The notes under the pieces are model-generated. The model had not been told where the DNA came from, made no database searches, and worked only from the letters and a program-made list of their open reading frames with translations. Positions 13,590 through 62,326 of a stretch of DNA of 64,000 nt are shown here, in pieces; positions within the stretch are counted from its first letter, which is position 1; every line of letters begins with the position of its first letter. The position numbers were made by a program, and so were the translations under genes. Origin of the DNA: Isurus oxyrinchus (lineage: Eukaryota); assembly GCA_026770705.1 (NCBI GenBank), contig JANJGN010000006.1, positions 72,540,001 to 72,604,000 of the forward strand. The letters are read 5' to 3'.

Positions 13590-13955
13590 TGTTTTTTTTT
13601 ATTATTCATTCATGAGATGTGGGCATCTCTGGCTATGCCAGCATTTATTGTCCAGCCCTATTTGCCCTTTTTCAGAGTGCATTTAAGAATCACCACATTA
13701 CTTTGGGTCTGGAGTCACATGTTGGCCAGACCAAGTAAGAATAGCAGATTTCCTTTCTGAAAGGGCACTAATGATCCAGGTGGGTTTTTCTGACAATTGG
13801 CAATGCTTTCATGGTCATCATCAGACTTTTAATTTCAGATTTTTATTGAATTCAAATTTCACCAGCTGCCATGGTGGAATTTGAAGCTGGGTCCCCAGAG
13901 CATTACCCTGGGTCTCTGAAATGCCAGTCCAGTGACAATACCACTATGCCACCAC
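13590..13955 (-). mobile_element. tRNA-derived SINE with LINE-shared 3' tail
   Basis: Minus strand begins ggtggcatagtggt (A box), has B-box-like gcttcaaattcc, ends ataaatgctggc..cccacatctcatgaatgaat+polyA, the same type of tail as the LINE at 62270-62326. Confidence 0.8.
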
Positions 13956-16489
13956 ACACTTCCCCAGCAGTCCTCCAAGTGCCCGAGAGCTCGGTTGAAC
14001 CTGCCTCCTGCTGTGGACATGTGTCCATGCAGTGACCACCAGACTGTGAACCTGAGCCTGCTCTAGATCTAGGTCCCACCAAGTTGTGTGTCTCTGCGCT
14101 GGTGCAGGGTGTGGGTAAGCGCTGTGATGGGTTTTCATGGCTGCTTATTTCCAGCACTACAATGGAGGAGGAGTCCTCTTTGATGGAGATGAGGACCTGG
14201 ATGGAGTTGAGGCTGGCTGAGGGTGCCAGTCACTTGGCAGAGCTCCCTGTGAACTAAAGCAGAGATAATTAGTGCATGGCAGCAGAGTCAAAAGCAGGAG
14301 AGAGAGCACTGACAGTTTCATTGAGAGGGGGATGATATGATGCAGGATCCGCACGAGGGTGTTCACCGCTGACCTCAACATCACCATAGGCATGGTCCAC
14401 ATCCTCACCAATCAGTGTGATAGCTCACTCAAATAGAGTGAGGGGCCTGATATGGGCCACTTCATCCAAGATTGGGACTCCTCCCTATTGATGTGAGCCG
14501 GCTTCTCCTGCCTGAAAACAGATGGAGAGAGTGTGAGCAGGACGCAAGGCACTATGTGAAATGTTTGTGTAGTGAGCAGAGACATGGAAGGGATGATGAT
14601 GCGAGCTCCAGAATATATGACCCTGACGGAGATGTGAGGGCAAGTATCAGTTAAATGTATTGTCCCTTGAGGTGTGAGATCCCTGTGGATGTGTGATGGG
14701 TTTGTGAGTGTGTGAATTGAGAGTGATGAGATAAGATACTTACCCTGATGGAAAGGATGAGATCATTCACCCTCTTACGGCACCGGGTGGCTGTCCTCTT
14801 TAGCATGGCGTTGGCGCTGACCACCGCTCCCACCACCTCCCATGCTGGATTAGTGAGCTTGCTTGCTGGCTTTCGCCCAAACGTGGGTAGAGGACATTGC
14901 GATCAGCCTCCACTGCGTCCAGTAGGCACTTGAAGGAGGCATTGCTAAATCTGGGGGGAACATGTGATCAATTCCCAGCAGCAACCTATCCCTAGAAGAG
15001 TGCTAGCTCTTTAAATATGGTGGCCAGTTTACTGAAGGCCTGAGGTGACGGCAGGGTGGGCGGATCAGAGACCTAGGGTGTTTCCCGGGAATGCATAATT
15101 AATGAGGCAGGTCGCACTGGGAATGGGATGATACGGCATGAAAAGCCGCTGTTGCCACCGGTGGGTAAAATGCCTTTTTTCCTGCCTGCTGCCACACTTA
15201 GTGCAAATCTGTGATGATTCTGCCCTCTGATATAAAAACTATGATATAAATTAATTTCATATTTCAACAAGATTTTTAAACTTTGTCTGCAGAGAATGCA
15301 AAATATATTTCTATCTAAGAAAATAACACGATGATTCAATTTTGAACTATTAGTTTCCAGTTTTTCTTTTCCCTTTTTTATTTAGCACTGTTTTGATAAG
15401 CTTTGTCAAGTATTTTCTTTGCAAAATTCAACACTCCATCCACAAGCTCATTTGGATGGAGGAACAACTGTGGTATTGTGCTTACATAGTAACTAGTGCT
15501 GGCAATTCAAATGAAGTTGGATTAAACAGCTAAAGCTTGGTAATTTGGAGAATTCATTAATTTTAATGATTTTGCCAAATGTATAACAAAAGGGCATTGT
15601 TTAAAACAGTGTGTTACTTCATAACACCATAAAATGAATGTACACATATTAAACTTTGAGGCAAAGACTAAATTTCTTTCAGTTTCATGTCTGATCTAAT
15701 TTTCATTGAAGAGCAAAGAAACAACGCATTTTGTAGAGTCATAGGTTATTAAAGAGTTCTGTGTCCATTAAGTCATTCCCAATCTCTACATACTCCATAA
15801 CGATGCTGTTTGCAGCATTTTACATGCAATTGGATAGCTACCACAACGTCACCATCTGACTTCTACCTTGGGATAGGCGTAATATCATAAGATCTTGAGC
15901 GGTGAATAAAGGAAGTTTCAAAAGGAAAGCTGCAGGAGGAATTATCTTCTACCTTGTTAGTGTTAGAGCTCATTTCTACCACAAAATACTTTAATCATGA
16001 ATGCAAAGTAATAGCCTTTGACCTGTCCTGTGGGATAATGGCATAGTGTACTCGTGTTGTTGTTGAGCATAGTAAGATGTTCATGTATTTGTACCTGCAG
16101 TTTCATGGAGGATGAGCCCTGGATCTTAACATGAAAATTGGGAGAAGGGACCAAATAGAGGTCAGACTTTTCAGCAGAGTTAAAATCCAGCAATGACCCA
16201 ACCTTACCAGATTTGTTTACTAAACCTTGGTAGCGATTTGAGAGCAGATTCATTGTCATCTTTCCTGTCTGGGGAAAATGTAACTGGTCCATTGAGGTGA
16301 GGGGTATGAGATGGAGGACACATCCTAAGGTGGAAAGAAGTATAGGTATATAGTAAAAAATAGACACCAACCTTCTACTTCTCAATCCATTGTGCTTTCA
16401 GTATTTGAAAGAATTCATGTCTTGGACTTCCCGATGTCGGATGGGCCCAAATTAGAAATTGGTTTGAAAAGTAGCACAGGATAACCAAG

Positions 16490-22557: not shown

Positions 22558-22710
22558 CGGGAGGTGATGCTGAAGAAGCGTTGATGAGTGTTGCATCATG
22601 TGGATAGTATACTCTGCAGCCAAGGTACGTCATTAGAGGGAGTAAATATTTGGAAGTTCCAATCAAGCGGACTGCTTTGTTCCTGGATGATTTTGAGCTT
22701 CCTGAGTTTT
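22420..22710 (-). mobile_element. Old LINE 3' fragment (family of 45392-47235 / 60870-62326)
   Basis: cttgttcttctagg..ggtcacaggttt..caatcaagcggactgctttgttcctggatg aligns by eye with 45670-45850. Confidence 0.65.
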
Positions 22711-23204
22711 GGCATATGATTAGTAAAAATTGCTCAGCATGTTGTTCGAACATTGTGTGCAGACACAATTTGTGCTTCTCAATCATTATTTTCAAACTGT
22801 TCAATAATGGAATTTTTAATCTCAGCTGTACTATGCTCTTGTTTTCTGCAATTGTGCTGGCATCACCACAGTCTCTATTTACTGTCATAGCAAGATTTTC
22901 TATGTCTTCATTTCCTGACTTGTCTTAAATGGCTTTTTTTGAAATGGATGAGGAAATTTTAATTGGTGCCCATCACCCTCAGTCTTCTGACTCTCTCACC
23001 TGTTAGATGCAGTCTTATGCTGAAATAAGAGAGCAATACATTGGGCAGCAGAAATGCAAATCTTCTCATGATGATGTGATGTATACATATGTAATATTAA
23101 TCTATAATTTCATTGGCTGGTCAAATTATATATATGTTGAACTTCTTTAAAAGGACTTTTTTAAAGCAAAGGCACCGACTTAAGATGGCTGCCACAGGTT
23201 ACCT

Positions 23205-31865: not shown

Positions 31866-32271
31866 AGGTGAATCCAAGGAATGGGTGAAATATAAGCTGG
31901 TTTAAGGTGTGTGTGTGTGTGTGTGGGGGGGGGGTGTTTGGGTGGGGGGGAGAGAAGTGGAGGGGGTGGTGTGGTTGTAGGGACAAACAAGCAGTGATAG
32001 AAGCAGATCATCAAAAGATGTCACAGACAACAAAACAAAAGAACACATAGGTGTCGAAGTTGGTGATATTATCTAAATGAATGTGCTAATTAAGAATGGA
32101 TGGTAGGGCACTCAAGGTATAGCTCTAGTGGGGGTGGGGGAGCATAAAAGATTTAAAAATATTTAAAAATAATGGAAATAGGTGGGAAAAAGAAAAATCT
32201 ATATAATATATTGGAAAAAAACAAAAGGAAGGGGGAAGAAACAGAAAGGGGGTAGGGATGGAGGAGGGAGG

Positions 32272-33875
32272 TCAAGACCTAAAGTTGTTGAATTCAATAC
32301 TCAGTCCAGAAGGCTGTAAAGTGCCTAGTTGGAAGATGAGGTGTTGTTCCTCCAGTTTGTGTTGGGCTTCACTGGAACAATGCCGCAAGACAAGGACAGA
32401 CATGTGGGCAAGAGAGCAGGGTGGAGTGTTGAAATGGCAAGCGACAGGGAGGTTTGGGTCATTCTTGCGGACAGACCGCAGGTGTTCTGCAAAGCGGTCG
32501 CCCAGTTTACGTTTGGTCTCCCCAATATAGAGGAGACCACATTGGGAGCAACGAATGCAGTAGACTAAGTTGGGGGAAATGCAAGTGAAATGTTGCTTCA
32601 CTTGAAAGGAGTGTTTGGGCCCTTGGACAGTGAGGAGAGAGGAAGTGAAGGGGCAGGTGTTACATCTTTTACGTGGGCATGGGGTGGTGCCATAGGTGGG
32701 GGCTGAGGAGTAGGGGGTGATGGAGGAGTGGACCAGGGTGTCGCGGAGAGAACAATCCCTACGGAATGCCGACAGTGGGGGTGAAGGGAAGATGTGTTTG
32801 GTAGTGGCATCATGCTGGAGTTGGCGGAAATGGCGGAGGATGATCCTTTGAATGCGGAGGCTGGTGGGGTGATAAGTGAGGACAAGGGGGACCCTATCAT
32901 GTTTCTGGGAGGGAGGAGAATGCATGAGGGCGGATGCGCGGGGGATGGGCCGGACACGGTTGAGGGCCCTGTCAACGACCGTGGGTGGAAAACCTCGGTT
33001 AAGGAAGAAGGAGGACATGTCAGAGGAATTGTTTTTGAAGGTAGAATCATCGGAACAGATGCGACGGAGGCGAAGGAACTGAGAGAACGGGATGGAGTCC
33101 TTACAGGAAGCGGGGTGTGAGGAGCTGTAGTCAAGGTAGCTGTGGGAGTTGGTAGGCTTGTAATGGATATTGGTGGACAGTCTATCACCAGAGATTGAGA
33201 CAGCGAGGTCAAGGAAGGGAAGGGAAGTGTCAGAGATGGACCACGTGATAATGATGGAGGGGTGGAGATTGGAAGCAAAATTAATAAATTTTTCCAAGTC
33301 CCGACGAGAGCACGAAGCAGCACCGAAGTAATCATCGATGTACCGGAGAAAGAGTTGTGGGAGGGGGCCGGAGTAGGACTGGAACAAGGAATATTCCACA
33401 TACCCCATAAAGAGACAGGCATAGCTGGGGCCCTTGTGGGTACCCATAGCCACACCTTTTATTTGGAGGAAGTGAGAGGAGTTGAAGGAGAAATTGTTCA
33501 GTGCGAGAACAAGTTCAGCCAGACGGAGGAGAGTAGTGGTGGATGGGGATTGTTCAGGCCTCTGTTCGAGGAAGAAGCTAAGGGCCTTCAGACCATCCTG
33601 GTGGGGGATGGAGGTGTAGAGGGATTGGACGTCCATGGTGAAGAGGAAGCGGTTGGGACCAGGGAACTGGAAATTGTTGAAGTGGCGTAAGGTGTCAGAG
33701 GAATCACGGATGTAGGTGGGAAGGGACTGGACAAGGGGAGAGAGAAGGGAGTCAAGACAATGAGAAATGAGTTCTGTGGGGCAGGAGCAAGCTATCACGA
33801 TTGGTCTACCGGGACAGTTCTGTTTGTGGATTTTGGGTAGGAGGTAGAAGCGGGCCGTCTGAGCTTGGGCGACTA
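32272..33875 (-). CDS. Penelope reverse transcriptase + GIY-YIG endonuclease (5'-truncated, uninterrupted frame)
   Basis: RFYLLPKIHK..PGRPIV..TMDVQSLYTSIP..GVAMG..RYIDD..FLD; C-terminal VYCIRCSQCGLLYIGETKRKLGDRFAEHL; the ORF-track start codon lies across the inversion junction. Confidence 0.9.
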
Positions 33876-35105
33876 GCTTCCTCTTTACCATGGATGTCCA
33901 ATCCCTCTACACCTCCATCCCCCACCAGGATGGTCTGATGCTACCTTCAAAAACAGTTCCTCTGACATGTCCTCCTTCTTCCTTAACCGAGGTTTTCCAC
34001 CCACGGTCGTTGACAGGGCCCTCGACTGTGTCCGGCCCATCTCCCGCGCATCCGCCCTCACGCCTTCTCCTCCCTCCCAGAAACATGATAGGGTCCCCCT
34101 TGTCCTCACTAATCACCCCACCAGCCTCCGCATTCAAAGGATCATCCTCTGCCATTTCCGCCAACTCCAGCATGATGCCACTACCAAACACATCTTCCCT
34201 TCACCCCCACTGTCGGCATTCCGTAGGGATTGTTCCCTCCGGGACACCCTGGTCCACTCCTCCAACACCCCCTACTCCTCAGCCCCCACCTATGGCACCA
34301 CCCCATGGCCACGCAAAAGATTTAACACCTGCCCCTTCACTTCCTCTCTCCTCACCGTCCAAGGGCCCAAACACTCCTTTCAAGTGAAGCAACATTTCAC
34401 TTGCATTTCCCCCAACTTAGTCTACTGCATTTGTTGCTCCCAATGTGGTCTCCTCTACATTGGGGAGACCAAACGTAACTGGGCGACCACTTTGCAGAAC
34501 ACCTGCGGTCTGTCCGCAAGAATGACCCAAACCTCCCTGTCGCTTGCCATTTCAACACTCCACCCTGCTCTCTTGCCCACATGTCTGTCCTTGTCTTGCG
34601 GCATTGTTCCAGTGAAGCCCAACGCAAACTGGAGGAACAACACCTCATCTTCCGACTAGGCACTTTACAGCCTTCCGGACTGAATATTGAATTCAACAAC
34701 TTTAGGTCTTGACCTCCCTCCTCTATCCCCACCCCCTTTCTGTTTCTTTCCCCTTCCTTTTGTTTTATTCCAATAAATGATATAGATTTTTCTTTTTCCC
34801 ACCTATTTCCATTATTTTTAAATATTTTTAAATCTTTTATGCTCCCCCACCCGCACTAGAGCTATACCTTGAGTGTCCTACCATCCATTCTTAATTAGAA
34901 CATTCATTTAGATAATATCACCAACTTTGACACCTATGTGTTCTTTTGTTCTGTTGTCTGTGACATCTTTTGATGATCTGCTTCTATCACTGCTTGTTTG
35001 TCCCTACAACCACACCACCCCCCTCCACTTCTCTCCCCCGACCCAAACCCCCCCTCCCCTCCACCTTAAACCATCTTATATTTCACCCGTTCCTTGGATT
35101 CACTT

Positions 35106-35144
35106 AGTTCCGTCGAAGGGTCATGAGGACTCGAAACGTCAACT
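35106..35144 (+). ncRNA. Minimal type I hammerhead ribozyme-like motif (variant core)
   Basis: AGUU-CCGUCGA-A-GGGUC-augag-GACUC-GAAAC-GUC-AACU: stem I, stem II, GAAA and GUC site present; core deviates from CUGANGA at two positions. Confidence 0.6.
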
Positions 35145-35809
35145 CTTTTCTTCTCTGCCGATGCTGCCAGACCTGCTGAGTTTTTCCAGGTAATTCTGTT
35201 TTTGTTTTGGATTTCCAGCCTCCGCAGTTTTTTGTTTTTATATAGCCTGCGGGATTCTACAAACAGTCCTTATGAGACTATGAGAGGCAGTCTCTTGAAG
35301 GTAAGTTTATATCATTTTTAATTACCTTATTGTCAACCCAGAGTGCTCTTTTCTGCTTCACAGTAATTTTGCAGGTTGCTGCTGGTCAACACTCATGTTA
35401 CTTACCACCTTGGCTGGTGGCAGTTGGCAGATTTATATTCTTCCTGAAACTGGCAAGCTGCATCTGGGTCAATGACTGGCACTCAGCAGAAGCAAACAGT
35501 TGGGGTTGATTGACCATTTTTGCATGATTCTACCATCAACATCATTGGGCACATTCCGTTGCATTGCACAAGAATTGCACACCAACCCTGCTGCAATCCA
35601 ATTTCCAGGCTTCTGTTTCTCTCCAGCACTCAAGATGGGGTGGAGATGGTACAGGAAAATCAGCACCACAATCTGGGAAATATGCCTGTATGCCCAAAGA
35701 TATTCTGGCGAATTCTTCAATCTAATATTGCTGGACATTTTATTCATCCTGACTGGCCTTATTAAAAAATATGAAAGTAACAGCTCACATTAAATGTCTT
35801 TCAATAGAC

Positions 35810-36007: not shown

Positions 36008-39000
36008 TGTAATAAACTTTGGGATGCAGAGCAGGTTTCTTATAAGAAACAGTAAACTTTATTTACAGATTCCAGATGAGTCTTCGTACTTGGTCCAAGA
36101 CCAGGACTAAAAAACTCCGCTCCTAAGATTCCACTGCATTTAGGGATGATTAGTCTATACAGCCACATGATCCCCATAACAGTAAGAAATGGTTTAACTT
36201 ATAATTACTACATTCCTCCCCCTTTAATTTTGTTTTACCCTCTTATTTACAAAAATATCTTAACCCATATTAAATACAATTATGTACAGTTCATGCAATT
36301 ATAGATTTAGTCTTCGAGGAGGTTTTTGGATTTGGATAGAGCGACAAAACTCTACAACTAGAGGTTCTTCCATTGGATCAACTTGAACAGGAGCTGCAGC
36401 TTCAGAGACATCCCTAGTCAATGGCAGTTCAGAATTATTTACTTCAACAGGGACTTCTGGCATGTCTATTCTTTGTCAATCTGGCACCTCAGGAGTCAGT
36501 TTCGGCTTCAGGTGGATTAATTGGTTGTTGGAAGGTTTAAGATGATCCACATATTTCCTAACAATCCTGTTTTCCACTTCAACTTGATAAGGTAAAGGTC
36601 CTGTTCCAGAGAAGATTGTACCAGGGACCCATTTCGGTCCAGTTGCAAAATTTCATACAAAAACTGTCTCTCCCACAGTAAACTCTTGACCTTTACTGTG
36701 AACGTCATGATTCACTTTCTGACTACCCTGGTTTCTCCCCACTTCCCCTCTAAATTAGGGAATACTACAGTCAATCTTGAATGAAGTCAATGCTTCATTA
36801 ACAACTCTGAAGGTGTTAAACCAGTGGTCGCGTGCAGAGTTGTGTGATAGCTGAACAGGAATCCCGAAATTCACATTTATAATGTTCCCTCTGATAATTT
36901 CTTCATGCCTGTTTTACTGCTCTTTCTGCTAACCCATTAGAAGAGGGATGGTACGATGCTGTTCTGACGTGTTTAATCCCATTTAGGTTCAGGAATCTTT
37001 GGAATTCAGTGCTAGTGAAAGCCATACAATTATCTGACATGATAACTTCGGGTAAACCAGAAATACTTAAACTCTGGCACAGTTTTTCAATGGTTGCAGA
37101 CGAAGTAGGTGATCTCACCTCAAACGCGTCCATCCATTTGGAATGTGCATCGATTATCACAAGAAACATGTTACCTAAAAATGGACCTACATAATCTATA
37201 TGTAGTCTAACCCAGGGTCGACCAGGCCACTCTCTCGGATGCAGGGGAGTTGAAAAAGGCAACTTCTGCTATTGCTGACACTGGAGACAGTGTTTAACCA
37301 TTTATTCTATATTAGTGTCTGTACCTAGCCACCAGATATAAATTTGTGCAAGCATCTTCATTTTTGAAATACCAGGGTGTGCACTATGAAGTTCATCTAA
37401 TAATGGTTCTCTTCCTTGGACAGGGTCAACGACTCTTGCTCCCATAACAAGATGCCATCTTGACAACTCAGTTTGGATCTACATACAAAGAATGGTTTCA
37501 ATTCTTCAGGAACTTGTGTATTTGACCACCCTTGTAATACTCGTTCGCGGACACTTGCTAAAATTGGATCCCTATTTGAACAATTCTTTAACTGTCTTGT
37601 GCAGACTGGTGAGGAGCCTAGGACCTTCAATGCAAGTACTATCTCTTGAGGTACTGGAACATGTGTAATACTATCTGGCAAAGAGAGATGACTGAGGGCA
37701 TCTGCATTTGCTATATGTGCACCAGAACGGTGCATAAAAGTGTACTTGTATGCCAATAAATTTAAAGCTCATTTTTGAATTCTAGCAGAGGCTATCGTTG
37801 GGATTGCCTCATCTTCACTAAACAACCCTAACAGTGATTTGTGATCTGACACTATGGTGGAGATCAAATATTGATGGAACTGTTTTACTCCAAATAGGAT
37901 AGATAAGCCCTTTTTTCAATCTGTGAATATCCTTTCTCCACTGCAGAAAAGGTTCTGGACACATATCCTGTAGGCTTTTCAGATTTCATTTCTGTTGTTT
38001 TTCTTGTGTTAGCCACAAGGTTTCATCTCATCTTTCATTTTGATTTTGCATTCGGCCACATTTCTCTCGGGTGAAATCTTAACTTGTTTCAATTCGGGGG
38101 TTGAGTTATTCATTTGCATCTTGGAAAGTTCCATGATTTTTCCTCCTAATGCCTCCTTTGTCTCGATCAACCAATTCCTCAGTTCTTCTGTCTCTCTTTT
38201 GTAACTATTGGCTTCCGCTTGGAACACCAAACACTTGGTTTTTTTCTTCAACCGTTTCTTCAGTTGGTTCAGATGGCACTGGATTTGTTTTGCTTCTTTC
38301 CCTGATTTTCCCATGGAACCAACTCTGACCTGAGGGATCCTTGCTTCCTGTGAAGGTCCTTTGTTTTTTCTATCTCATTCCAAAAGACACCATCACATTC
38401 CCTTGTCAATTTCTGCTCCTGAACTGAGAAATTTCTGACCAAGTTAGCTTGATTTCTTTCAACCAATCATGGCCTAGAGACTTGGTCCTTCTCCTGTTAT
38501 TGGTAGCTGGGCTGTCTGTTGCCTGAATATTACAGGTCCTGAGGTAATGCCTTTCACCTGTATTGCTTCTCCTGTTTATGTTTTTAACTGAGCAGCCGTT
38601 TTCTCAAAACTCAATGGCTGGGTACCTTCTCTGAGATATTTAAAGATGTGTTCTCCCGCCACTGTGGTCGATGCGCCTGTGTCAACTTCCCTGAGCAGAG
38701 GCTTTCCATTTACTTGAAGTGTAACAGTTTTCCTGGCCTTCAGATGGTGTAGGAAATAAACATCAGCGCTCAGTAACTTCTGACTCATCTATATTGTGCA
38801 CTTCATTTAACTTGACTTGTTGTCTGAATGGCTGCCTTGATTGAGTCCTGTAGTGTTTAACAACATGCCCTTTTTTGTGCCAGTAGTGGCATTCTGCCTC
38901 TTTAAATCTACAAACTTCGGGTACATGATTTCCCCCACAACAGTAACACTTTAAATTCTGGATTACTGGTGAGCTGATTCGAGCATTTCTTTTTGCTTTT

Positions 39001-39717
39001 CTAGTGGTAGGGAACGTGTCCTGCTTCATGTTAACCTCCCTGATCTTTGCCCCACACCCAGCTACAGGTTCCCGCCCTAGCTGCAAAACTGTGTCATGTT
39101 GCACATTCTGCAGAGCCTGCGAGTCCCTCTCAGCTTTCTCCATTGCTGTGCTATCTCCATGGTGCGCTTCAGGTCTATCTCAACTTCAGCAAGTAAATGG
39201 CGCCAAATGGCATAATTGTTTATGCTGGAAACCAAATGATCTTGCAATGCTTTATTTACAGTAGCACCAAAGTTACAGCGCTCCGTTAACTGTTGAACTT
39301 TGTGATGTACATTGCGATCGACTCACTGGGGGGCCCTTACTCAAGAGTTAAACTTGAATCTTTGCATGGTCACTGAGGGTTTAGGCTGAAAATGTCCTTT
39401 CTTGAGCTCTACTAGCTTGGTGAAGGATCTGGAATTTGGTGTGTTTGGAGCCATTAAGTTACGGTTAGATTATAGGATTTGCTCCTGCAGCCACTTAGGA
39501 GAGTTGACTTCTTTTTCTCCTCTGCCATTATTTTGTTAGCTACAAAGTAGAAACCTAATCACTCAATGTATTGACTCCAGTCCTCGATGGATGGAGTCAT
39601 AGGGGTCAATTCTGCCAAAGAGAGGCATTGCTGGTGAATATACTCCTTTTCTTTCTTCTCTTAAGATAAATTGAATTATTCACAATCATGAGGCAAGGTG
39701 TTGCGTTGGCACTATTT

Positions 39718-39730
39718 ATCCTCGTTGCCA
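39718..39730 (-). promoter_or_regulatory. Primer binding site, tRNA-Ser(GCU)-like
   Basis: tggcaacgaggat 2 nt inside the 5' LTR; one mismatch to the complement of vertebrate tRNA-Ser(GCU) 3' end ATCCTCGTCGCCA. Confidence 0.75.
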
Positions 39731-39920
39731 ATTGTAATAAACTTGAAGAGTGCAGGACTGTTTTTTATTAAGAAACAGTAAACTTTATTAACAGACTCCA
39801 GATGAGGCCAAATGCTTGTTCTAAGACCAAGCTAAAAAGCTCCACCCCTAAGTTTTCCCATGCTTCGGGCTGATTTGTCTATACGTGCACATGATACCCA
39901 TTACAGTAACAAATAGTTTT

Positions 39921-40200
39921 TAAAAATTCATACATGGGATATGGGCTTCGCTGGTTAGGCCAGCATTTATTGCCCATCCTTAGATGCCCTTGAGAAGGTG
40001 GTGGGGAGCTGTCTTCTTAAACTGCTGCAGTTCATGTGGTGTAGGTACACCCACAGTGCTATCAGGAAGGCAGTTCCAGGGGTTTGACCCAGTGACAGTG
40101 AAGGAACGACAATATATTTCCAAGTCAGGATGGTGAGTGACTTGGAGGAGAACTTCCAGGTGGTGGTGTTCCCATCTATCTGCTGCCCTTGCCCTTGTTC
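39921..40200 (-). mobile_element. LINE 3' fragment inserted in the Gypsy 5' LTR
   Basis: Highly similar to 45400-45680 (gccagcatttattgccc..cttgagaaggtggtg..). Confidence 0.85.
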
Positions 40201-43297: not shown

Positions 43298-46200
43298 GGG
43301 TGGAATTCTCCATGACTGCAGGCATTGGGCATGAGTGGGCAATATGGTGAGAAGGCCAAAAATCGGTTTCATGACGTTGTGAAACCAGTTTGCGATCATC
43401 CGCCCTGCCGTCAGGTGTTGGGAACCTCATTGTAATACATCTGCATATCATTATAAGCGCAGCCTGCCAGAATCTTCCCCCAATACTGGATCATCCGCCC
43501 ACTTTGGTGGGAAAACCCACCGGCGCAGAACCATTGTGACACATCTTGATAAGTGTGACGTGCAGAAGTCGGGACTTACCGCCAGGGCATTGCTCACATC
43601 GCCAACATCCGAAGAGCAGAAATGCTGGAGCCTGACAGCAACGTCTCACTGGAGGAACATCCATCATATGCTGGGTGGATTCTCATGGACATAGTTCTGC
43701 CACGAAGCAGCTCACAGAAAGTGGAAAGTCACTGTTGAGGATCTGCTCACAATGGATAATCATCGAGGGGACGGAGAGGAAGGTCCAGCTGTGCTTGGAA
43801 TAGGAAGATCTAGGTTTGACTGGGAGATGAAGGTGTGTCTGGCGGGGGTGGTGAGGGTGAAGTTGGGAGTGGGGAACGAAGGTGATGGGGAGCTGAGATT
43901 AGGAGGGGGTAGGGAGCATGGGGGGGTGGGAGAGGGGGTAACAGGGAGAAGATGGTAGGTGTAAGGGGGGAGGAAGGTGTAAGGGAAGGAGTTTGGAGGG
44001 AGGAAAGAGTCCAAAGAGGGGAAGGAGTCCAGGGGGTGGGAAGTTGGCAGGTGGTAGGGGTGGGGGGGTGGTGGGAAAGGAGTCCAGTGGGAGGAAAGGA
44101 GTTCCAAGGGTGGGAGGAATGTGGTGTGGCAGGGGGGGTGGGGGGAAGAAGCTCCAAGAGAGGAAGGAGTTCCAAGGGAGGAAGGAACCTGGACAGGGGA
44201 TGTCCAGGTAAATGTGCAAGAGAGGTCTCTGTTGAGTCCATGACTGCCTCCTGGAGAATGAACCGAGGGTGTGTGTGGTACAAGGGAATGGTGAGAATCA
44301 CCAAGGGCAGAGTGAGGGGGGTGGGGGATGAGGGTGTGACAGTGTTAGTAGAAGGGACAGCTAGGGTGGTTGGTGGGGACTTGGATGCAGGCACGGACGC
44401 TGGAGTTGGGAAGGAGCACGGGAAGGTTAATGTGGAGGGGTGTGGGATTTTCAGGAAGGAAGAGAATGTCCACTTCACCTGGACATCTTCGAAGGAATAG
44501 AGTTGTGGCTGGTAGGTGATGGTGGGGAGGTGGAAGGTAATGCCGGGGCATCGACAGTGATGGGGGAAAGGACGGGAACCTGAAGAAAAATATTAGAAGC
44601 ACCATGCTTGCCAAATCGAAAGTGAAACGAGAGTCATGGTGGGTGCGATCAGGTGCTGCATGGGAGTGTGATCATTGGGTGGGCAGAGATGCAGCTTGGA
44701 TGATCGACTGAAAGCAAACCTCAGCAGGAGCATTGAAAATGCTCAGGACATTGAGATGAGTGTGATATGTGAACAATCCACTTGCATGGGGGAGTGCTCG
44801 CACAAGGCTCTGAAAGACCCTGACACACATATACACTACTCCCTCCAGAATCACTCGTGGGCCAGCTGCTCCCTCTGCAGTGATAGATGATGAGGTTGAG
44901 GGGGTCACAGGCAAAGGGGCCTCTGAGGGAAAGGAGAGCCTTGGAGATTCCTGAATGGATGACCCAGGGGTGTCCAGCTGCCGCTCCTCCTCCCTTTTGG
45001 TGCCCATGGTTCCCGGCCTGACTTCTTGATCGGGAGCAGCACATGGAGGGATGTCGAAGTGCCCCATTTCCCTTTCATGCTGCCACTGCAGGAACTCACC
45101 CATGGCTTCAGCAATGGAGTGCAGGTCAGTGTGCATGTCTGCGTCCTGCTGGACCAAGGTCTCCATGGCTTCCACCATCCTTCCCATGGAGACCTCTGTA
45201 CGCACACGTTTGGGTGCCATATCATCAGAGAGTGGGCAGACCCAATCCTCCGACTCACTTGCCACTCTGCTGAGGTCTTCCAACAGCTCTGCTTGATATT
45301 CTCCTGCCTTCTGCTGACTCTCCAGGATGAGTTGGAAGGCAAAATCCAGAGACTCGGACCTCACAGATGCCTTTTCCTCAGCAGTCCTCCTACTTTTTCT
45401 TTATTTATTCACGGGATGTGGGCTTCACTGGCTGGGCCAGGATTTATTGCCATTACCTAGTTATCCTTGAGAAGGTGGTGGTGAGCTGCCTTCTTGAATT
45501 GCTGCAGTCCATATGGTGTGGTTTAGGCACATCCATAGTGCTGTTAGGAAGGGAGATCCAGGATTTTGACTCAGAGACAGTGAAGGAACGGTGATATATT
45601 TCCAAGTCAGGTTGGTGTGTGACTTGGAGGGGAACTTCCAGGTGGTGGTGTTCCCATCTATCTGCTGCCCTTGTCCTTCTAGTTGGTAGTGGTCATGGGT
45701 TTGGAAGGTGCTACCTAAGGAGCATTGATGAATTCATGTACTGCATCTTGTAGATGGTACACACTGTTGCCACTGTGCGTCGGTGGTGGAGGGAGTGATT
45801 TTTGCAGATATGGTACCAATCAAGCGGGCGGCTTTGTTCTGGATGGTGTCAAGCTTCTTGAGTGTTGTGGGAGCTGCACTCATCCAGGCAAGTGGGGAGC
45901 ATTCCACCACACTCCTGACTTGTGCCTTGTAGATGGTGGACAGGTTTTGGGGAGTCAGGAGATGAGTTACTTGTCACAGGATTCCTAACCTCTGACCTGC
46001 TCTTGTAGCCACAGTATTTATATGGCTAGCCAGTTCAGGTTCTGGTTTTGGCAATGCCCAGAATGTTGATAGTGGGGGATTCAGTAATGGTAATGCCATT
46101 GAACATCAAGGGGCGATGGTTAGATTCTCTATTGTTGGAGATGATCATTGTCTGGCATTTGTATGGTGTGAATGTTATTTGCCGCTTATCAGTTCAAGCC

Positions 46201-48508
46201 TGGATATTGTCCAGGTCTTGATGCATTTGAACATGGACTGCTTCAGTATCTGAGGAGTTGCAAATGCTGCTGAACATTGTGCGATCATCATTAAACATCC
46301 ATACTTCTGACCTTATGATGGAAGTAAGGTCATTGATGAAGCAGCTGAAGGTGGTTGGGCCCAGGACATTACCTTGAGGTGATGTCCTGCAGCTGAGATG
46401 ACTGACCTCCAACAACCACAACTATCTTCCCTTATGCTAGGTAAGATTCTAACCAGCGGAGAGTGGTTCCCTGATTCCCATTAACTTCAGTTTTGTTAGG
46501 GCTCCTTGATGTCACACTCAGACAAATGCTGCCTTGATGTCAAGGGCAGTCACTCTCACCTCATCTTGGGAGTTCAGCTCTTTTGTCCATGTTTGGACCC
46601 AGGCTGTAATGAGGTCAGGAACTGAGTGATGCTGGCAGAACCCAAACTGGGCGTCAGTGAGCAGATTATTGCTAAGCAAGTGCTGCTTGATAGCACTGTT
46701 GATGACCTCTTCCATTACTTAACTGATGATTGAGAGTTGACTTATGGGGCGGTAATTGGCCCGGTTGATTTGTCCTACTTTTTGTGTACAGGACATACCT
46801 GAGCAATTTTCCACATAGCCAGGTACATGAAAGTGTACTGGGACAGCTTGGCACTAGTCCCCAGATGTTAGTAAGGGACCCTTGCTGGATCAATGGGGAT
46901 GAGTTTTCCATTGTCATTTCTGGTGCTTAGGTCAATGTCGGGTGGTCCATCTGGTTTCATTTTTAAGACTTGTAGCGGTTTGATACAACTGAGTCACATG
47001 TAGGTCAGAGCAGGAAAAGATGGTAGATTTCCTTCCACATTAGTGGAAGCCATCTAGTGAACCAGATGGGTTTTTACAACTGTTGACAAAGGTTCTGTGG
47101 TCATCATTAGATTTTTAATTCCAGATTTTTATTGAATCCAAACTTTACCATCTGCCATAGCAGGGTCCCCAGATTTACCCTGGGTTTAACTGGATTACTA
47201 GTCCAGCAACAATACCACTATACCATTGCCTCCCCAAGTGCCAGGGATCTCAGCTGATCCTGCCTCCTCCTGCTGAGGACACATGTCCGTGCGGTGACCA
47301 CCAGATTGTGAAACTGAGCCTGCTCTCAATCTAGTTCCCACTGAGGTGTGTGCCCCTGCGCTGGTGGAGGGTGTGGGTAAGTGCTGTGCAGCAGCCTTGC
47401 AGGCTGCTCATTTCCAGCTCTTAAATTGAGGACGAGTGCTTTTGGCTGGAGGTGAGGACCTGGATGGGGCTGAGGGACTGGCTCGCTGAGAGTGTCAGTC
47501 GCTTGGCAGAGCTCCCTGTGAACCAATGTAGAGATGATGAATGCATGGCAGCAGAGTCAAAAGCAGGAGAAAGAGCACTCACATTTGCGTTGAGAGGGAT
47601 AATGGAGTGTAGAATCCTCACAAGGATTTTCGCCACCGACCTCACCATCGCTGCAGGCACGGTCCACATCCATACCAGTCAGCGTGATGGCACACTCCTG
47701 AAAGTGAGTGATGGGCCTAATGTGGGCCACTCCATCCCTGGCCTGAGACCTCTCTATGCTTGTATGAGCCAGCTTCTCCTGCATGAAACCACATGGAGAG
47801 AGTGTCAGCAGGATACATGGCACTGCATGGAATGTTTGTGTGGTGAGTGGAGACATGGACGGGATGAGGACAGAAGCTCCAGAGGATATGACCCTGATGG
47901 AGATGTGAGAGTGTGTGTGAGACTTAGTGGTGTTGTCCCTTGAGCTCTGAGATCCCTGTGGATGTGTGATGGGTTTGTGAGTGTGTGAGTTGAGAGTGAA
48001 GAGAAGAATGAGTTACCCTAGTGGAACGGGTGAGACCACTCATCCTGTTGTGGCACTTTGCAGGGCATTGGTGTTGACCACCGCTGCTACTGCCTCCCAT
48101 GCTGGATTGGTGACCTTACTTGCTGGAGCGTGTGTAGAGAACATCATGGCGGGTCTTCATTGTGCCCAAAAGGCACTCGAGGGATGCGTCATTAAACCTG
48201 GGGGTTGTAATCTTCTTGCCTTTCGGGGCCATGTCTTTTGTACAGCTGTCCTGGGCTGGAAGCACTGAGAGGTGTTCACATGGATGCACGTTAAGTATGG
48301 CGCTCAGCATGTTGAAGTGGCGATGTGATTGCGTAACACGCAAATGAGAGCCTATCCACCAACAAAGCAGCGTCTTTCCCAGGAATGCATATTTAATGAC
48401 TTGGGATTGGGACGGTACAGTGTGAAAAGCTGCCATTGCAGCCAGCGGGTAAAACATTCTTTTCCCACCCGTTACTGCACTTAATGCAAATCTGGGATGA
48501 TTCCACCC
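43298..48508 (-). mobile_element. Harbinger-like element with intron-containing Myb/SANT gene (copy 3)
   Basis: Perfect 9-bp TIR gggtggaat..attccaccc, flanks GTA/TTA; MAPKGKKITTPRFNDASLECLL..DVLY; exon 2 EKLAHTSIERSQARDGVAHIRPITHF; C-terminal ORF 44672-45364. Confidence 0.85.
45392..47235 (-). mobile_element. Internally deleted LINE (CR1/L2 group) with a tRNA-SINE-like 5' head
   Basis: Head ggcaatggtatagtggt + SINE body, then LTNIWGLVP (APE start), QFGFCQHHS..ALDIKAAF, PQGNVLGP..MFNDD, 3' tail + polyA. Confidence 0.85.
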
Positions 48509-49369
48509 TTAGTTGGGTTCGAGTTTTTAACCTCCTTGGGTCTAAGTTAAAAGTATTTACACTGTACTTCGAGTTAAATGAAAATAAACTGGACTAGGTA
48601 GTTTAGATGTAAACTGCACTTTCACTTTTAATAAAAAATATACTTCAAGATACTGGGATCAATATCCTGAAAGAATATGCATCTGAGGCATCAGGCAAAT
48701 TCATAACCCTTCACCTTAACTCCTCATCATTGAATCAACTGGAATTTACCACCCAGTTTATGCCAAGGAGTTAATGATAACTAAATTTGGCTTGCTGAAT
48801 TGTCTTGCATCAACCAACTTGGAGTATATAAGGATGGAGGAGAGAGTTCATGGTCTGAAATTGTTGAACTCAATATTAAGTCCATAAAACTGTAAAGTGC
48901 CTAGTCGGAAGATGAGGTGCTGTTCCTCCAGTTTGCGTTGAGCTTCACTGGAACAATGCAGCAGGCCAAGGACGGACATGTGGGCATGAGAGCAGGGTGG
49001 AGTGTTGAAATGGCAAGCGACAGAGAGGTCTGGGTCATGCTTGCGGACAGACTGAAAGTGTTCCACAAAGCGGTCACCCAGCCTGCTTTTGATCCCTCCA
49101 ATGTAGAGGAGACCGCATTGGAAGCAGCGAACGCCACAGACTAAATTGAGGGAAGTGTAAGTGAAATGCTGCTTCACTTGAAAGGAGTGTTTGGGCCCTT
49201 GGATGGTGAGGAGAGGGGAAGTAAAGGGGCAGGTGTTGCACCTTCTGCAGTTGCATGGGAAGCTGCCGTGGGAGGGGTTTGAGGTGCAGGGGGGTGATGG
49301 AGGAGTGGACCAGGGCGTCCTGGAGGGAACGATCCCTGCAGAAAGCCGCCGGGGTTGGGTCGGGGGGAT

Positions 49370-49397
49370 GGGGGGGGGGGGGGGGGGGGGGGGGGGG
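49370..49397 (+). repeat. Poly-G run (28 nt)
   Basis: Direct reading of the sequence. Confidence 0.9.
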
Positions 49398-51951
49398 TGA
49401 AGGCAAGATGTGTTTGGCGGTGGCACCATGCTGGAGTTGACAGAAATAGAGGCGGATGATCCTTTGAATGCGGAGGCTGGTGGGGTGATAAGTGAGGACA
49501 AGGGATAAGTGAGGACATGTTTCTGGGAGGGAGGAGAAGGCGTGAGGGCGGATGCACGGGAGATGGGGCCGGACACGGTTGAGGGCCCTCTCAACCACTG
49601 TGGCTCGAAAACCTCGGTTAAAGAAGAATGAAGACATGTCAGAGGAACTGTTTTGGAAAGTGGCATCATCAGAACATATGCAACAGAGGCGAAGGAACTG
49701 AGAGAACGGGATGGAATCCTTACAGGAAGCAGGGTGTGAGGAGCTGTAGTCGAGGTAGCTGTGGGAGTCGGTGGGTTTGTAATGGATATTGGTGGACAGT
49801 CTATCACCAGAGATTGAGACTGAGAGGTCAAGGAAGGGAAAGGAAGTGTCAGTGATGGACCATGTGAAAATGATGGAGGGGTGGAGATTGGAAGCAAAAT
49901 TAATACATTTTTCCAGATCCAGATGAGAGCATGAAGCGGCACCAAAGCAGTCATCGATGTACCAGAGAAAGAGTTGTGGCAGGGGGCCTGAGTAGGACTG
50001 GAACAAGGAATGTTCCACAAACCCCATACAGATGCAGGCATAACTGGGGCCCATGCGAGTACCCATAGCCATACCTTTTATTTGGAGGAAGTGAGACGAT
50101 TTTAAGGAGAAATTGTTCAGTGAGAGAACAAGTTCAGCTAGACAGAGGAGAGTAGTGGGGAATGGGGATTGTTCAGGCCTCTGTTCGAGGAAGAAGCGGA
50201 GAGCCATCAGACCATTCTGGTGGGGGATGGCGGTGCAGAGGGATTGGATGTCCATGGTGAAGAGGAGACTGTTAGGGCCAGGGAACTGAAAATTGTTGAT
50301 ATGATGTAGGGCGTCAGAGGCGTCGTGGATGTAGGTGGGAAGAGACTGGACAAGTGAGAGAGAATGGAGTCAAGATAGCAAGAAATAAGTTCCATGGGGC
50401 AGGAACAGGCTGACATGATCAGTCTGCCGGGAAAGTCCTGTTTGTGGATTTTGGATAGGAGGTAGAAGCGGGCCGTCCAAGGCTGGGAGACTGTAAGGTT
50501 GGAAGCTGTGGAGGGAAGATCTCCAGAGGAGATGAGGTCAGTGACAGTCCTGGAAACAATGGCTTGATGTTCACTAGTGGGGTCATGGTCCAGGGGGAGT
50601 TAGGAGGACGTGTCTGCGAGTTGATGCTCAGTCTCTGTGAGGTAGAGGTCAGTGCGCCAGAAAACAACAGTACCACCCTTGTCAGCAAGTTTGATGACAA
50701 AGTCAGGATTGGATCTGAGAGAACGGTGTGAGGCAAGTTCAGAAAGAGACAGGTTAGAGTGGGTGAGAGGAGCAGAGAAATTGAAACGTGACATCAGTCG
50801 TCTCAATTTCTCTGGTCCCCTCTAACCTCGACTACAGCTCCTCACACCCCGCTTCTTGTAAGGACTCCATCCCATTCTCTCAGTTCCTTCGCCTCCGTCG
50901 CATATGTTCTGATGATGCCATTTTCCAAAACAGTTTCTCTGACATGTCTTCCTTCTTCCTTAACTGAAGTTTTCCACCCACGGTGGTTGACAGGGGCCTC
51001 AACCGTGTCCAGCCCATCTCCCGCGCATCTGCCTCACACCTTCCGCTCCCTCCCAGAACCCTGATAGGGTTCCCCTTGTTCTCACTTATCACCCCACTAG
51101 CCTCCGTGTTCAAAGGATCATCCTCCTCCATTTCTGCCAACTCCAGCATGATGCCACCACCAAACACATTTTCCCTTCAACCCCCCGGCGGCTTTCCGTA
51201 GGGATCGTTCCCTCCGGGACGTCCTGTTCCACTCCTCAACCCTCTCCCGCGTTACCTTCCCATGCAACCTCAGAAGGTACAACACCTGCCCCTTTACTTC
51301 CCACACCCCCCCTCCCCCCCACCGCCCAAGGGCCCAAACGCTCCTTTCAAGTGAAGCAACTTGCGCAAGCATGACCCAGAACTTCCTGTCGCTTGCCATT
51401 TCAACACACACCCTGCTCTCATGCCCACATGTCCGTCCTTGACCAGCTGCAATGTTCCAGTGAAGCTCAACGCAAACTGGAGGAACAGCACCTCATCTTC
51501 CGACTAGGCACTTTACAGTCTTATGGGCTTAATATTGAGTTCAACAATTTCAGATCATGAACTGTCTCCTCCATCCCCACCCCCTTTCCGATCTCTCTTT
51601 TTCCAATAATTTATAATTTTTTACAACTATATTTTTTTTCTTTTCCTTCCTTTTTTTAAATTTATTTCAAGCTTTTGTTTCATTTCTATCCTTTAAGCCC
51701 AATTTAATCCCTTCCCCCCAACCCACCCTCACTAGGGCCATCTGCCACTAGCTTATCCTGCTTGCTACCCTTAATGTCCCCATTATCATAAGCTTTAGAT
51801 AATATCACCACCGTCAACACCCTTTTGTCATTCTGTAGATAACATCTTTGGCAATCTCTTCTTGGCCTCCACCTATCACTGGCCCCCTATCGAGCTCTTC
51901 TCTCCCACCCCCTTCTACCAGCTTATATTTCATCTCATTCCTATATGTCTT

Positions 51952-51990
51952 AGTTCAGATGAAGGGTCATATGGACTTGAAACATCAACT
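51952..51990 (+). ncRNA. Hammerhead ribozyme-like motif
   Basis: AGUU-CAGAUGA-AGGGUC-auau-GGACUU-GAAAC-AUC-AACU; one core mismatch. Confidence 0.55.
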
Positions 51991-52267
51991 GTATCCCTCT
52001 TCACAAATGCTGTCAGACCTGCTGAGTTTTTCCAGGGATTTTTGTTTTTGTTCTCAGCCAAATAAGCTTGTTCATTTGACAAACAAATCCCACCCTATTA
52101 TTAAAAATCTTAATCCTTTTCTTTTTACAGAAATCTATTAAATGCCTCAAGTCTATTCCATTCCTTCAAAGGCCTTCATTGATGATTTGATTCATAAAAA
52201 CTATATTCATTCAGTACAAGAGTTTTGGCTACCTTCCTTCCTCACTCCTAATTTTCTGATTTTGTTC

Positions 52268-56600: not shown

Positions 56601-57093
56601 ACTCCACTGAAAGAAGGAAACTCTTGGACTGTTACTGGCTCTCAAGCACTTTGAAATATATGTCCGAAACGAATTTAGAGAAACTTTTGACTACACGCCT
56701 TAACATTTGTGGAGAAGTTCAAAAGCCATAATGCAAGGCTATTTTGATGCGCCTGTTTTGCAGCTTTATCACTTAAAGATTACACACCTTGCAGGAAAAA
56801 GCAATGTGATCGCTGATACTTATCTAGAGTTTAACTCAGTACCAAAATCATCCTAAAAATTATGGATAATGGGAAATCAGTTCCAGGCTATAAAAAATGT
56901 AGCCACAGATCCTGATAAAATAATAAAATCGCACTTACTATCACACACACATGCGTTCAAGAGTTCACAATCACATACGAAAGTAAGTTACAAAGTGGGA
57001 GGGTTAAATTGAGTATTTAAGTGTGAATGTGTGTCTAATTTTTTTCTGAATGAAAAATTGTAATGAAATGCTTATTTCATCTTGGCGGGGAGG
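53670..57093 (+). mobile_element. Gmr1-like Gypsy internal region (PR-IN-RT-RH), degenerate, 5' part missing
   Basis: GPVTVGIVPSFPVNGINLLLGN ~53710; IAHEILMAGHVG 54237 and CKTCHTCQ 54343; RVLVDCVG ~54440; WSSPVVL..DSYPIPR ~55740-55845; YLDD 56064; IDASD 56488; PPT ggcggggagg 57084-57093. Confidence 0.88.
55239..55369 (+). mobile_element. Short Penelope-tail insertion with hammerhead-like core
   Basis: ctgaaga..gaaa followed by Penelope-type tail; flanked by tatgccgggt / tatgccaggt. Confidence 0.7.
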
Positions 57094-58149
57094 TGTTATA
57101 AAATTCATGTTTTGTATCAAAAATTACATAATTTATAGAGTGGGCTAAAACCACTGAATAAATAAAAAGACTGAACGACAGCATTTTAAATGGCTTAAAA
57201 AGCAGCTTATTAGGTGGCCAAACATTTGCACAGCTACACCCTACAAATTCCGAAGCCTTTCGAATGAAGTCAGTCTGTCCAGAGGTAGCCCCCAGAGATG
57301 AGTGCAAATGATCCATCTCCTGAACCATTCACAAAATATCTAGACATCACCTTTGTATACAGCTGGGTATGGAACAAGCCATTAAACTCAATCACTTTGA
57401 ACAATGGCTGAGAAAGTAATTGCACTGACTATAATTTAATAATTTCTACACAATGGACCTGGAATCAGCTTGCTATGGCCATGTTTGGGTAACTGGTCAG
57501 TTTTTGAGGGGAGATCATGTGATGAGCAAAATAACCCTCTTTGTGTTTTAAGAAATTGTTTTTTCAAGGCCAGGCAGAAGAAGAGAGTGAGGTCAGAGAG
57601 TAAGACTAGAAAGACCCTAAGTAGGCACTAGAAACCATTCTGCATTCTTGTGCCCTGCCTATTGCTTGACAAGCTACATGCTGCAGGCAGCATTAAAAAA
57701 AATCAACCCAGCAGCTGCTGACTCCAAAGGAAAATATGGAAATCGTGCATGAATTACCTTGATGCAGAATCCGGAATGACAGTCGAGCCTAGTCTGAAAC
57801 TACTTAAGTGATCAATCTACAAGGCTCTTAAACAATTTAATCTACCCTCCCACTTTGTAACTTACTTTTGTTTGTGATTGTGAACTCTTGAATGCATGTG
57901 TGTGAGATAGTAGGTGCGATTTTATTATTTTCATTTAAATCAGGTGTCAAGTATACCAAATACCTTTTCCTTTTCTTTTAAAAAAAGTATAAGTAAACCC
58001 GTCACTGTGTGGCTTTTACAGTCACAGAACTTAAACAGTTAAGCCCTCACTGAATTGGAAATTGAACTCTTAAAAAAACACTTGTTGCGGCCAATCAAAG
58101 GGTGGAATGAGAGGGGAGCCATTCTACCACTTCTCACCTGACTGTAAGA
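57094..58149 (+). mobile_element. 3' LTR of the Gmr1-like element
   Basis: tgttat immediately after the PPT; ends ctcacctgactgtaaga, similar to the end at 29440-29457. Confidence 0.65.
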
Positions 58150-60869: not shown

Positions 60870-62326
60870 AATATGCTCAATGATGGGCGAGCCCAGCACA
60901 TCAGTGCAAAAGATAAGGCTGAAGCATTTACAACATTCTTCCGCCAGAAGTGCCGAGTGGAAGATCCATCTCGGCCTCCTCTGGAGGTCCCCAGCATCAC
61001 AGATGCCAGTCTTCAGCCAATTCGATTCACTCCACGTGATATCAAGAAATGGCTGAAGACACTGGATACTGCAAAAGCTATGGGCCCTGACAAGATTCCA
61101 GCAATAGTACTGAAAACTTGTGCTCCAGACTTGCCACACCCCTAGCCAAGCTGTTCCAGTACAGCTACAACACCAGTTATGTGGAAAATTGCCCAGGTAT
61201 GTCCTGTACACAAAAAGCAGAACAAATCCAACCTGGCCAATTACCACCCTATCAGTCTACTCTCAATCATCAGTAAATTAATGTCAGGGGTCATCAACAG
61301 TGCTATCAAGTGGAACTTGCTTTGCAATAACCTTCTCACTGACACCCAGCATGGGTTCTGTCAGGGTCACTCAGCTCCTGAACTCATTACAGCCTTGGTT
61401 CAAATATGGACAAAAGAGTTGAACTCAAGAGTTGAGGTGAGAGTGACTGGCTTTGACATCAAGGCAGCATTTGACTGAATGTGACATTAAAGAACCCTAG
61501 CAAAACTGGAGTCAATGGCAGTTAGGGTGAAAACTCACTGCTGGTTGGAATTCAAGCCACACAAATGCCAGGCAATGACCATCTCCAACAAGAGATGGCC
61601 CAACCATTGCCTCTTGACATTCAATGACATTACCATCACTGAATCCCCAACTACTCACATCCTGGGGGCTACCATTAACCAGAAACTGAACAGGAATAGC
61701 CATATAAATACTGTGGCTACAAGAGCAGGTCAGAGGCTAGGAATCCTGTGGTGAGTAACTCACCTCCTGACTCCCAAAAGCCTGTCCACCATCTACAAGG
61801 TACAGGTCATGAGTGTGATGGAATATTCCCCACTCACCTGGATGAGTGCAGCTTCAACAACACTCAAGGAGCTTGACATCATCCAGGACAAATCAGCCCA
61901 CTTGATTGGTACCCCATCCACAAACATTCACTCCCTCTACCGCCGACGAATAGTGGCAGTAATGTATCCAAGCTACAAGATGCTATGCAGGAACTCACCG
62001 AGGATCCTTAGACAGCACCTTCCAAACACAAGACCAATTCCATCTAGAAGGACAAAGGCAGCATACACATGGGACCATCACTGCCTGGAAGTTCCTCTCC
62101 AAGTCAGTCACCATCCTGAATTGGAAATATATCACCGTCCCTTCACTGTCACTGGGTCAAAAACCTGGAATTTCCTCCCTAACAGCACTATGGGTGTACT
62201 TATATAGCATGTACCACAGCAGTTCAAGAAAGCAGCTCACCACTACCTTCTCAAGGGCAGCTAGGGATGGCAATAAATGCTGGCCCAGCCAGCGAAGCCC
62301 ACATCCCATGAATGAATAAAAAAAAA
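60870..62326 (+). mobile_element. LINE (CR1/L2 group), 5'-truncated with internal deletion
   Basis: KAMGPDKIPAIVLKTCAPDL; WKIAQVCPVHKK..NYHPISLLS..DIKAAFD; tail caataaatgctggcccagcc..atgaatgaataaaaaaaa. Confidence 0.9.

Follow-up and report, generated by a model that had tools for sequence, protein, structure and literature searches.

A tRNA-type head opens the ORF1-less Zenon LINEs of sharks and rays and is a candidate Pol III promoter of a coding retroelement

Retroelements are usually divided into long interspersed elements (LINEs), which are coding and transcribed by RNA polymerase II (Pol II), and short interspersed elements (SINEs), non-coding and transcribed by RNA polymerase III (Pol III). 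Zenon LINEs lack the first open reading frame (ORF1) and end in poly-A tails, and those of elasmobranchs have been described without formal repeat-repository annotation (Stuart et al., 2026; PMC13343379). We analyzed a 64,000-nt stretch of the genome of the shark Isurus oxyrinchus (hereafter the window; assembly GCA_026770705.1, contig JANJGN010000006.1, positions 72,540,001 to 72,604,000, forward strand), in which a decayed Zenon copy at 45-47 kb begins with a tRNA-like, SINE-type head. The elasmobranch consensuses used for comparison are CarCar_Zenon-1, ScyCan_Zenon-1, RhiTyp_Zenon-1, HypSab_Zenon-1 and SquAca_Zenon-1/2/3 (PMC13343379 supplement, 1,003 families by the paper's own count); their first 400 nt were compared by eye and not by program alignment.

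The window element matches the elasmobranch Zenon consensuses by eye in the 5' 400 nt and shares with them the absence of ORF1, the poly-A tail and a reverse transcriptase (RT) domain; nine codons remain of what would be the APE endonuclease in the same ORF. It differs from them in that the 45-47 kb copy has lost its B box, a 61-nt part of the body and ~1.4 kb of ORF2. The Zenons of hagfish, coelacanth and insects are likewise ORF1-less, poly-A-tailed LINEs of the CR1 group; however, the three hagfish and coelacanth consensuses have no tRNA-like head. Among tRNA-derived SINEs with LINE tails, shark HE1/HER1 and SINE2-1_CM/CR1-2_CM also combine a tRNA head, A and B boxes, a body and a LINE-shared 3' tail (PMC3747384, PMC3472496, PMC5499810), but what SINE and LINE are reported to have in common in these cases is the tail alone, whereas in Zenon the head and body also belong to the LINE. 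In bipartite non-autonomous LINEs and the SINEs derived from them (Bov-A/Bov-tA, RTE, Ingi, Vingi, R2), the short element consists of the 5' and 3' ends of a LINE, as here; such forms are reported for RTE, Ingi, Vingi and R2 only, with Pol II transcription assumed and the tRNA head on the short element (PMC5786205). The 5' untranslated region of the LINE Ingi-3_AC may hold SINE-derived sequence acquired via recombination (PMC5786205), which is a body fragment in the middle of that region; in Zenon, by contrast, a tRNA head bearing the promoter boxes stands at nucleotide 1. Zenon thus differs from the bipartite forms in belonging to a CR1-group clade and in carrying the head on the full-length LINE. 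Pol III gene sequences fused to retroelements are also found in Cassandra, an LTR (long terminal repeat) element with a 5S promoter, and in U6/L1 chimeras; unlike Zenon, these are non-coding or one-off and not an ORF2-coding family kept across a subclass.

The window copy (45391..47235, minus strand) is an internally deleted and decayed elasmobranch Zenon LINE, whose full family length is ~3.3 kb. All components that the original prediction had placed on this strand, namely head, SINE body, leader, LTNIWGLVP, RT and tail, are present. The 5' end is formed by the tRNA-like head (47150..47235), with which the published consensuses start alike by eye, followed by the body common to the LINE and a short element at 13.6 kb (46991..47149), which ends at a 61-nt deletion flanked by two ACTC words (size counted by eye against CarCar_Zenon-1). 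The LINE-only leader (46876..46990) is present but measures 115 nt instead of the ~130 nt first estimated. It leads into nine codons, LTNIWGLVP (46849..46875), that open the APE endonuclease and are the same as those that follow the leader in SquAca_Zenon-3 and HypSab_Zenon-1; this stretch has no Pfam match and is too short for one. Past these codons the copy jumps directly into the pre-RT segment at a deletion junction with the 5-nt microhomology GCCAA (46848..46852), seen in the alignment to a second copy at 61 kb; linker protein matches cover 60873-61319 in the latter and are absent upstream of 46852. Nearly the whole endonuclease and linker are therefore gone, a loss of ~1.4 kb estimated as a 3,288-nt consensus minus 1844 nt, allowing for smaller indels. 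The original prediction of an endonuclease start followed by RT was right as to both parts, but it had understated or passed over this loss, the deletion in the body and the host repeat common to both insertions (below). The remainder comprises the RT domain with stops and frameshifts (46056..46763; Pfam RVT_1, E 3e-20), the C-terminal part of ORF2 up to its stop codon (45457..46055; by translation, 82.5% to the 61-62 kb copy) and the 3' tail with its A-rich end (45391..45470), common to the short element and to copies at 40 kb and 62 kb.

The 360 nt preceding the endonuclease start contain no ORF of at least 90 codons, and hence no ORF1. There is no poly-A between body and leader and no target-site duplication (TSD) between the parts, which the original prediction had named as a sign of a separate SINE insertion, nor a convincing TSD at either the 47-kb or the 13.6-kb insertion. 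In total the copy has three internal deletions (B box, 12 nt net; 61 nt of body; ~1.4 kb of ORF2), most likely microhomology deletions that occurred after insertion. It is dead and non-autonomous, because the ~1.4 kb were lost right after the nine endonuclease codons. An ATG in the leader (46960-46958, minus strand) begins a short reading frame, MKPDGPP..., which runs across the start of the endonuclease in a different frame. Six of the seven published consensuses have this ATG; in the sole one that displays both, its frame is not that of the endonuclease. It may mark an upstream ORF or provide a frameshift start of ORF2.

By its sequence the element is an elasmobranch Zenon LINE, an ORF1-less, poly-A-tailed member of the CR1 group. 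Its RT relatives, 56-72% identical, come from Mobula (devil ray), Heptranchias (sevengill shark) and Scyliorhinus (catshark), which account for five of the seven hits (one of the five carries no species name). The linker missing at 47 kb is retained in the 61-kb copy and in Heptranchias proteins; the shark proteins compared contain linker and RT pieces, and none extends to the endonuclease start. An unnamed APE-RT protein of the hagfish/coelacanth/insect Zenon type is 33-35% identical to the shark linker and RT. Several named shark and ray gene models hold in-frame pieces of Zenon ORF2, reflecting exonisation or annotation error.

The same head, body and leader open all seven shark and ray Zenon consensuses (five species; 2,886-3,314 nt), as compared with none of the three from hagfish and coelacanth, and two of the seven reach the LTNI codons within the printed 400 nt. 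A word from the body occurs exactly seven times in the whole supplement text, and six canonical B-box 11-mers yield three matches among its 5' 400-nt consensus rows, all of them in shark Zenons. The B box is kept in six of seven elasmobranch rows, as a variant in the three Squalus ones; between Squalus and the other sharks, A box, anticodon loop and B box are conserved by eye while the intervening sequence differs. According to the published table, the longest genomic insertions span 3,220-3,322 nt in five rows and 4,347 nt in the stingray, endonuclease coverage is 92-99% in four rows, 76% in one and 0 in one, and intact ORF2 copies number 0/2313, 1/1419, 3/612, 1/294 and 0/59 (PMC13343379). 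We consider it close to certain that a tRNA-type head is a family-wide feature of this ORF1-less coding LINE, in agreement with the original prediction of an ORF1-less family with such a 5' end; the junction is not unique to the locus, the outcome that would have counted against that prediction, as it recurs in every one of the published rows. Since all Zenons are ORF1-less, the loss of ORF1 is not a result of head capture. In the main text of PMC13343379, as far as available, the words tRNA, promoter and polymerase have no match and SINE occurs once, in a reference title; the preprint likewise has no match for tRNA, promoter or polymerase. The head thus sits in published Zenon data, where the available text leaves it undescribed.

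Within the head, the Pol III A box (47215..47225, minus strand) has one mismatch due to CpG decay and is conserved in the published rows, and an anticodon-like hairpin (47190..47206, minus strand; from the fold and the Rfam alignment) has a 7-nt loop, CTAGTAA, that would read AGU. Such a loop would suggest a likeness to tRNA-Thr. The B box is missing from this copy, as had been noted before: its site (47158..47163, minus strand) is marked by a 12-nt net loss in the alignment with the short element and in the by-eye comparison with the published rows. In the short element the A box is exact and a B box with two mismatches lies at 13887-13877, the boxes being 53 nt apart. As isolated words, both are at chance level in the 64 kb (A-box-like words, 5 found vs 6.8 expected; B box with two mismatches, likewise). 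ARAGORN and a window-wide Rfam scan detected no tRNA in the window, while targeted Rfam scans gave sub-threshold tRNA scores, on the strand expected, of 17.2 bits for the 47-kb head and 13.7 bits for the 13.6-kb head (gathering threshold 29). Taken alone, the head in the window is SINE-like and weakly tRNA-like.

Pol III terminates at runs of four or more T (T4), so a LINE RNA made by Pol III should be free of such runs. In the sense strands of five Zenon pieces from the window (4,057 nt, A tails excluded), one T4 run was observed vs 8.42 expected from base composition (P 0.001), with no T5 run, and A4, C4 and G4 runs were at expectation; the controls contained 29 vs 20.1 expected (five other LINE pieces) and 9 vs 8.5 expected (a host repeat). 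The sole Zenon T4 (47018) is not found in the published rows, and by eye TTTT is absent from the first 400 nt of all seven elasmobranch rows vs present in all three other Zenon rows. The T-run deficit favours Pol III without proving it.

Taken together, the best overall explanation, and in our judgement a probable one, is a Pol III-transcribed Zenon with a 5' promoter fused from a tRNA or SINE. In the shark/ray ancestor, a tRNA/SINE 5' module would have been joined to Zenon ORF2, probably via template switch or recombination with a SINE already using the Zenon tail. The internal A/B-box promoter would then have taken over from a Pol II promoter, with Pol III making the whole ~3.3-kb RNA and the element avoiding TTTT terminators on its sense strand. 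The uncapped RNA would be translated from a non-standard start, and the Zenon protein would copy it by target-primed reverse transcription, so that the promoter travels with every full-length copy. Short elements made of head, body and tail, such as that at 13.6 kb, would use the same promoter and tail and be mobilised in trans. As for its parts, we lean towards Pol III transcription of the Zenon coding RNA, judged from sequence features, and give slightly better than even chances to the fuller picture, in which elasmobranch Zenon is an autonomous coding LINE transcribed end to end by Pol III, kept since before the shark-ray split, in effect a SINE with an acquired ORF2, and shedding SINEs by internal deletion. 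The original prediction of Pol III use is therefore supported indirectly, by the conserved boxes and the depletion of T runs; its further step, a Pol III-made coding transcript, is not established.

The short element (13593..13957, minus strand; 365 nt) consists of head and body (13957-13670) joined to the tail (13669-13593). It has the traits of a tRNA-derived SINE, being short and non-coding, with a tRNA-like head bearing A and B boxes and a tail shared with a LINE, and occurs once in the window. Its sharing of head, body and tail with the LINE was predicted correctly: the match was found by self-BLAST, 181 of 230 aligned bases (78.7%) are identical between the LINE head and body (47235-46991) and 13957-13712, and the tail has 53 of 71 identities over ~72 nt with that of the 47-kb LINE and 63 of 73 with that of the 62-kb LINE. 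The short element corresponds to the first ~290 nt of the consensus, unbroken, followed by the last ~75 nt of the LINE, and it keeps 43 nt of body (13670-13711) that the 47-kb copy lost. The collinear form expected of an internally deleted LINE is therefore present. That it is a deletion derivative of the LINE is an interpretation towards which we incline mildly. The same appearance would be expected of a donor SINE carrying a Zenon tail, and a single copy does not give the order of events; the original claim of a derivative as opposed to a donor is to that extent not established. The opposite direction, in which the short element belongs to an older SINE family that gave its head and body to the LINE, is a serious contender, though we rate it somewhat below even chances. 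It would account for the absence of the head from the other Zenons (0 of 3), the module having come from outside, and it has precedents in bivalve SINEs with CR1-Zenon tails (PMC11481361) and in the common exchange of modules among SINEs (PMC5499810); but the short element follows the ends of the LINE consensus collinearly from its first base to its last, leaving it nothing of its own, and internal deletions are frequent in the Zenon family, with three in the 47-kb copy and one in the 61-kb copy.

Both insertions lie in copies of one host repeat of ~4 kb, whose three paralogues are ~75-81% alike: 43329..48511 holds the LINE, 11118-15226 holds the SINE, and 26521-29185 has an empty site. Near one end of each paralogue is a MAPK...PRF/YxD motif (48232, 26803, 14955), which we take to resemble the Myb/SANT gene found in DNA transposons of the Harbinger type; Pfam gave no match in 30 whole and 4 short frames of the repeat. 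The two insertions have the same orientation and their 5' junctions are ~20 nt apart; that at 47 kb is blunt, while that at 13.6 kb is accompanied by loss of host sequence, with its 3' junction ~90 nt away. The same arrangement might be expected if a single old insertion had been duplicated with the host repeat and the supposed SINE had formed by deletion in place, without ever being retroposed, all the more as the divergence of the heads (78.7%) equals the level of the flanks (79.1%). We regard such a duplication as possible but doubtful: the 3' junctions are ~90 nt apart and each insertion has its own A-rich tail, and at informative sites the two occupied host copies are no more alike than each is to the empty copy (132 vs 152 vs 160 of 444). 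Since the two occupied hosts are not sisters, two insertions are favoured; a G-rich patch similar to the element's own 5' end may have guided them.

Several observations weigh against Pol III transcription of the full-length Zenon. An mRNA that is long, uncapped and made by Pol III lends itself poorly to translation. Neither head in the window reaches the Rfam tRNA threshold, their folds do not surpass those of shuffles (z -0.43, -0.10), and the B box of the stingray consensus looks degenerate. The five Zenon pieces in the T-run test are non-independent, and the non-redundant 2,106 nt give 1 vs 4.3-4.4 (P 0.049-0.064); tested against dinucleotide shuffles, none of the pieces taken singly reaches significance (P 0.23-0.87), and the Phe codon TTT is used no more sparingly than the other two-fold codons that end in T (6/16 vs 55/92, P 0.25). 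T4 runs are likewise few in a Penelope-like element of the window (2 vs 6.05, P 0.045), thus a low T4 count is not unique to the Zenon family.

A rival reading is a division of labour in which the head, though family-wide, does not act as promoter of the coding RNA. Pol II, by read-through or from a promoter in the body, would make the LINE RNA, the fold would serve 5'-end processing, stability or translation, in likeness to the self-cleaving ribozymes of R2, RTE and Ingi, and Pol III would make the short SINE RNAs only. Processing elements at the 5' end are known in six LINE clades (PMC5786205), the T4 evidence is marginal on non-redundant sequence, and one of the seven consensus B boxes is degenerate; nevertheless, no parts of the head are better kept among the species than the A and B boxes, and the T-specific deficit runs through the RT coding region, where it is predicted by Pol III transcription only, which makes the Pol II alternative rather unlikely. 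An improbable option is that the head travels along without function, having been fixed through a single ancient chimeric master, with promoter and fold now irrelevant: a single founding event would explain the head in all five species, and most copies are dead (the published table gives 0-3 with intact ORF2 among hundreds or thousands), but the boxes are conserved amid diverged neighbouring sequence, and an ORF1-less LINE has just these ~420 nt of 5' sequence as a possible internal promoter. An accident of this locus (a SINE inserted beside, or recombined with, a truncated LINE) or an artefact of consensus extension, which was automatic and then inspected (PMC13343379), is scarcely credible, since the same body-leader junction occurs in 7/7 rows from five species and independently in the raw genomic copy, which itself argues against such an artefact, and no poly-A or TSD separates the parts.

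If Pol III does transcribe the coding Zenon RNA, a LINE family with A and B boxes at nucleotide 1 in sharks and rays would break the divide between LINEs and SINEs, provide a natural example of a long coding RNA made by Pol III, and open a direct two-way route between SINEs and LINEs. The family numbers hundreds to thousands of copies across sharks and rays, according to the published table. The origin of the SINE body becomes a testable question, and shark repeat annotation may be mixing SINE copies with LINE 5' ends. It has been suggested that Pol II and Pol III promoter systems may conflict (PMC5786205). The Zenon family is already published; in the literature searched, with Repbase, Dfam and most subscription journals outside its scope, we found neither a description of a tRNA head on Zenon or any autonomous LINE nor the implication drawn here.

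Known SINE families were compared with the element. Identity with HE1 (V-SINE)/HER1 was rejected by eye, as the V-domain printed for bivalve V-SINEs is absent from the body; SINE2-1_CM/CR1-2_CM, and SacSINE1, which shares their tail, were rejected by eye because their printed 3' tails differ; and a UCON3-domain SINE was rejected, as three body words had no match and the printed UCON3 segment differs. Protein searches with translations of body and leader (38-123 aa), phmmer with the head-to-APE frame vs 1.84 billion representatives, blastn of the 5' 401 nt vs plasmids and phages, and motif and protein scans of bacterial and archaeal genomes for host contamination all returned no match.

The window contains three further Zenon pieces. 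The second copy (60870..62325, plus strand) is 5'-truncated; it retains some of the linker and carries a separate deletion of ~270 nt within RT. Deletions of this kind are therefore common and do not have to define a subfamily. The third (39917..40196, minus strand) comprises the 3' end only, and a short fragment lies at 22559..22711 (minus strand). All four tails examined end A-rich, as expected of a poly-A-tailed family, and the tail folds are not better than shuffles (z 0.16 to -1.81).

Other repeats surround these copies. Canonical CR1-type LINE pieces, used as controls, occupy 51-875, 1612-2053, 16495-18300 and 23210-25623, and a fragment of another LINE, presumably RTE-like by motif, is located at 6800-7420 (minus strand; no T4 run in 621 nt vs 0.85 expected). 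Penelope-like elements, with RT and GIY-YIG domains by weak Pfam matches, are found at 31766-35205 and 48829-52051, inverted and partly duplicated, the 33-kb ORF having 544 open codons and few T4 runs. An LTR-type element (36008-39919) has direct repeats of ~190 nt at its ends and an integrase core at 36906-37268, and its right repeat adjoins the A tail of the 40-kb Zenon copy. Two segments, 21849-22557 and 56917-57931, resemble MITEs (miniature inverted-repeat transposable elements), with terminal inverted repeats (47 nt at 100% and 99 nt at 91%, respectively) around 0.7-1.0 kb, and the former adjoins the Zenon fragment at 22559.

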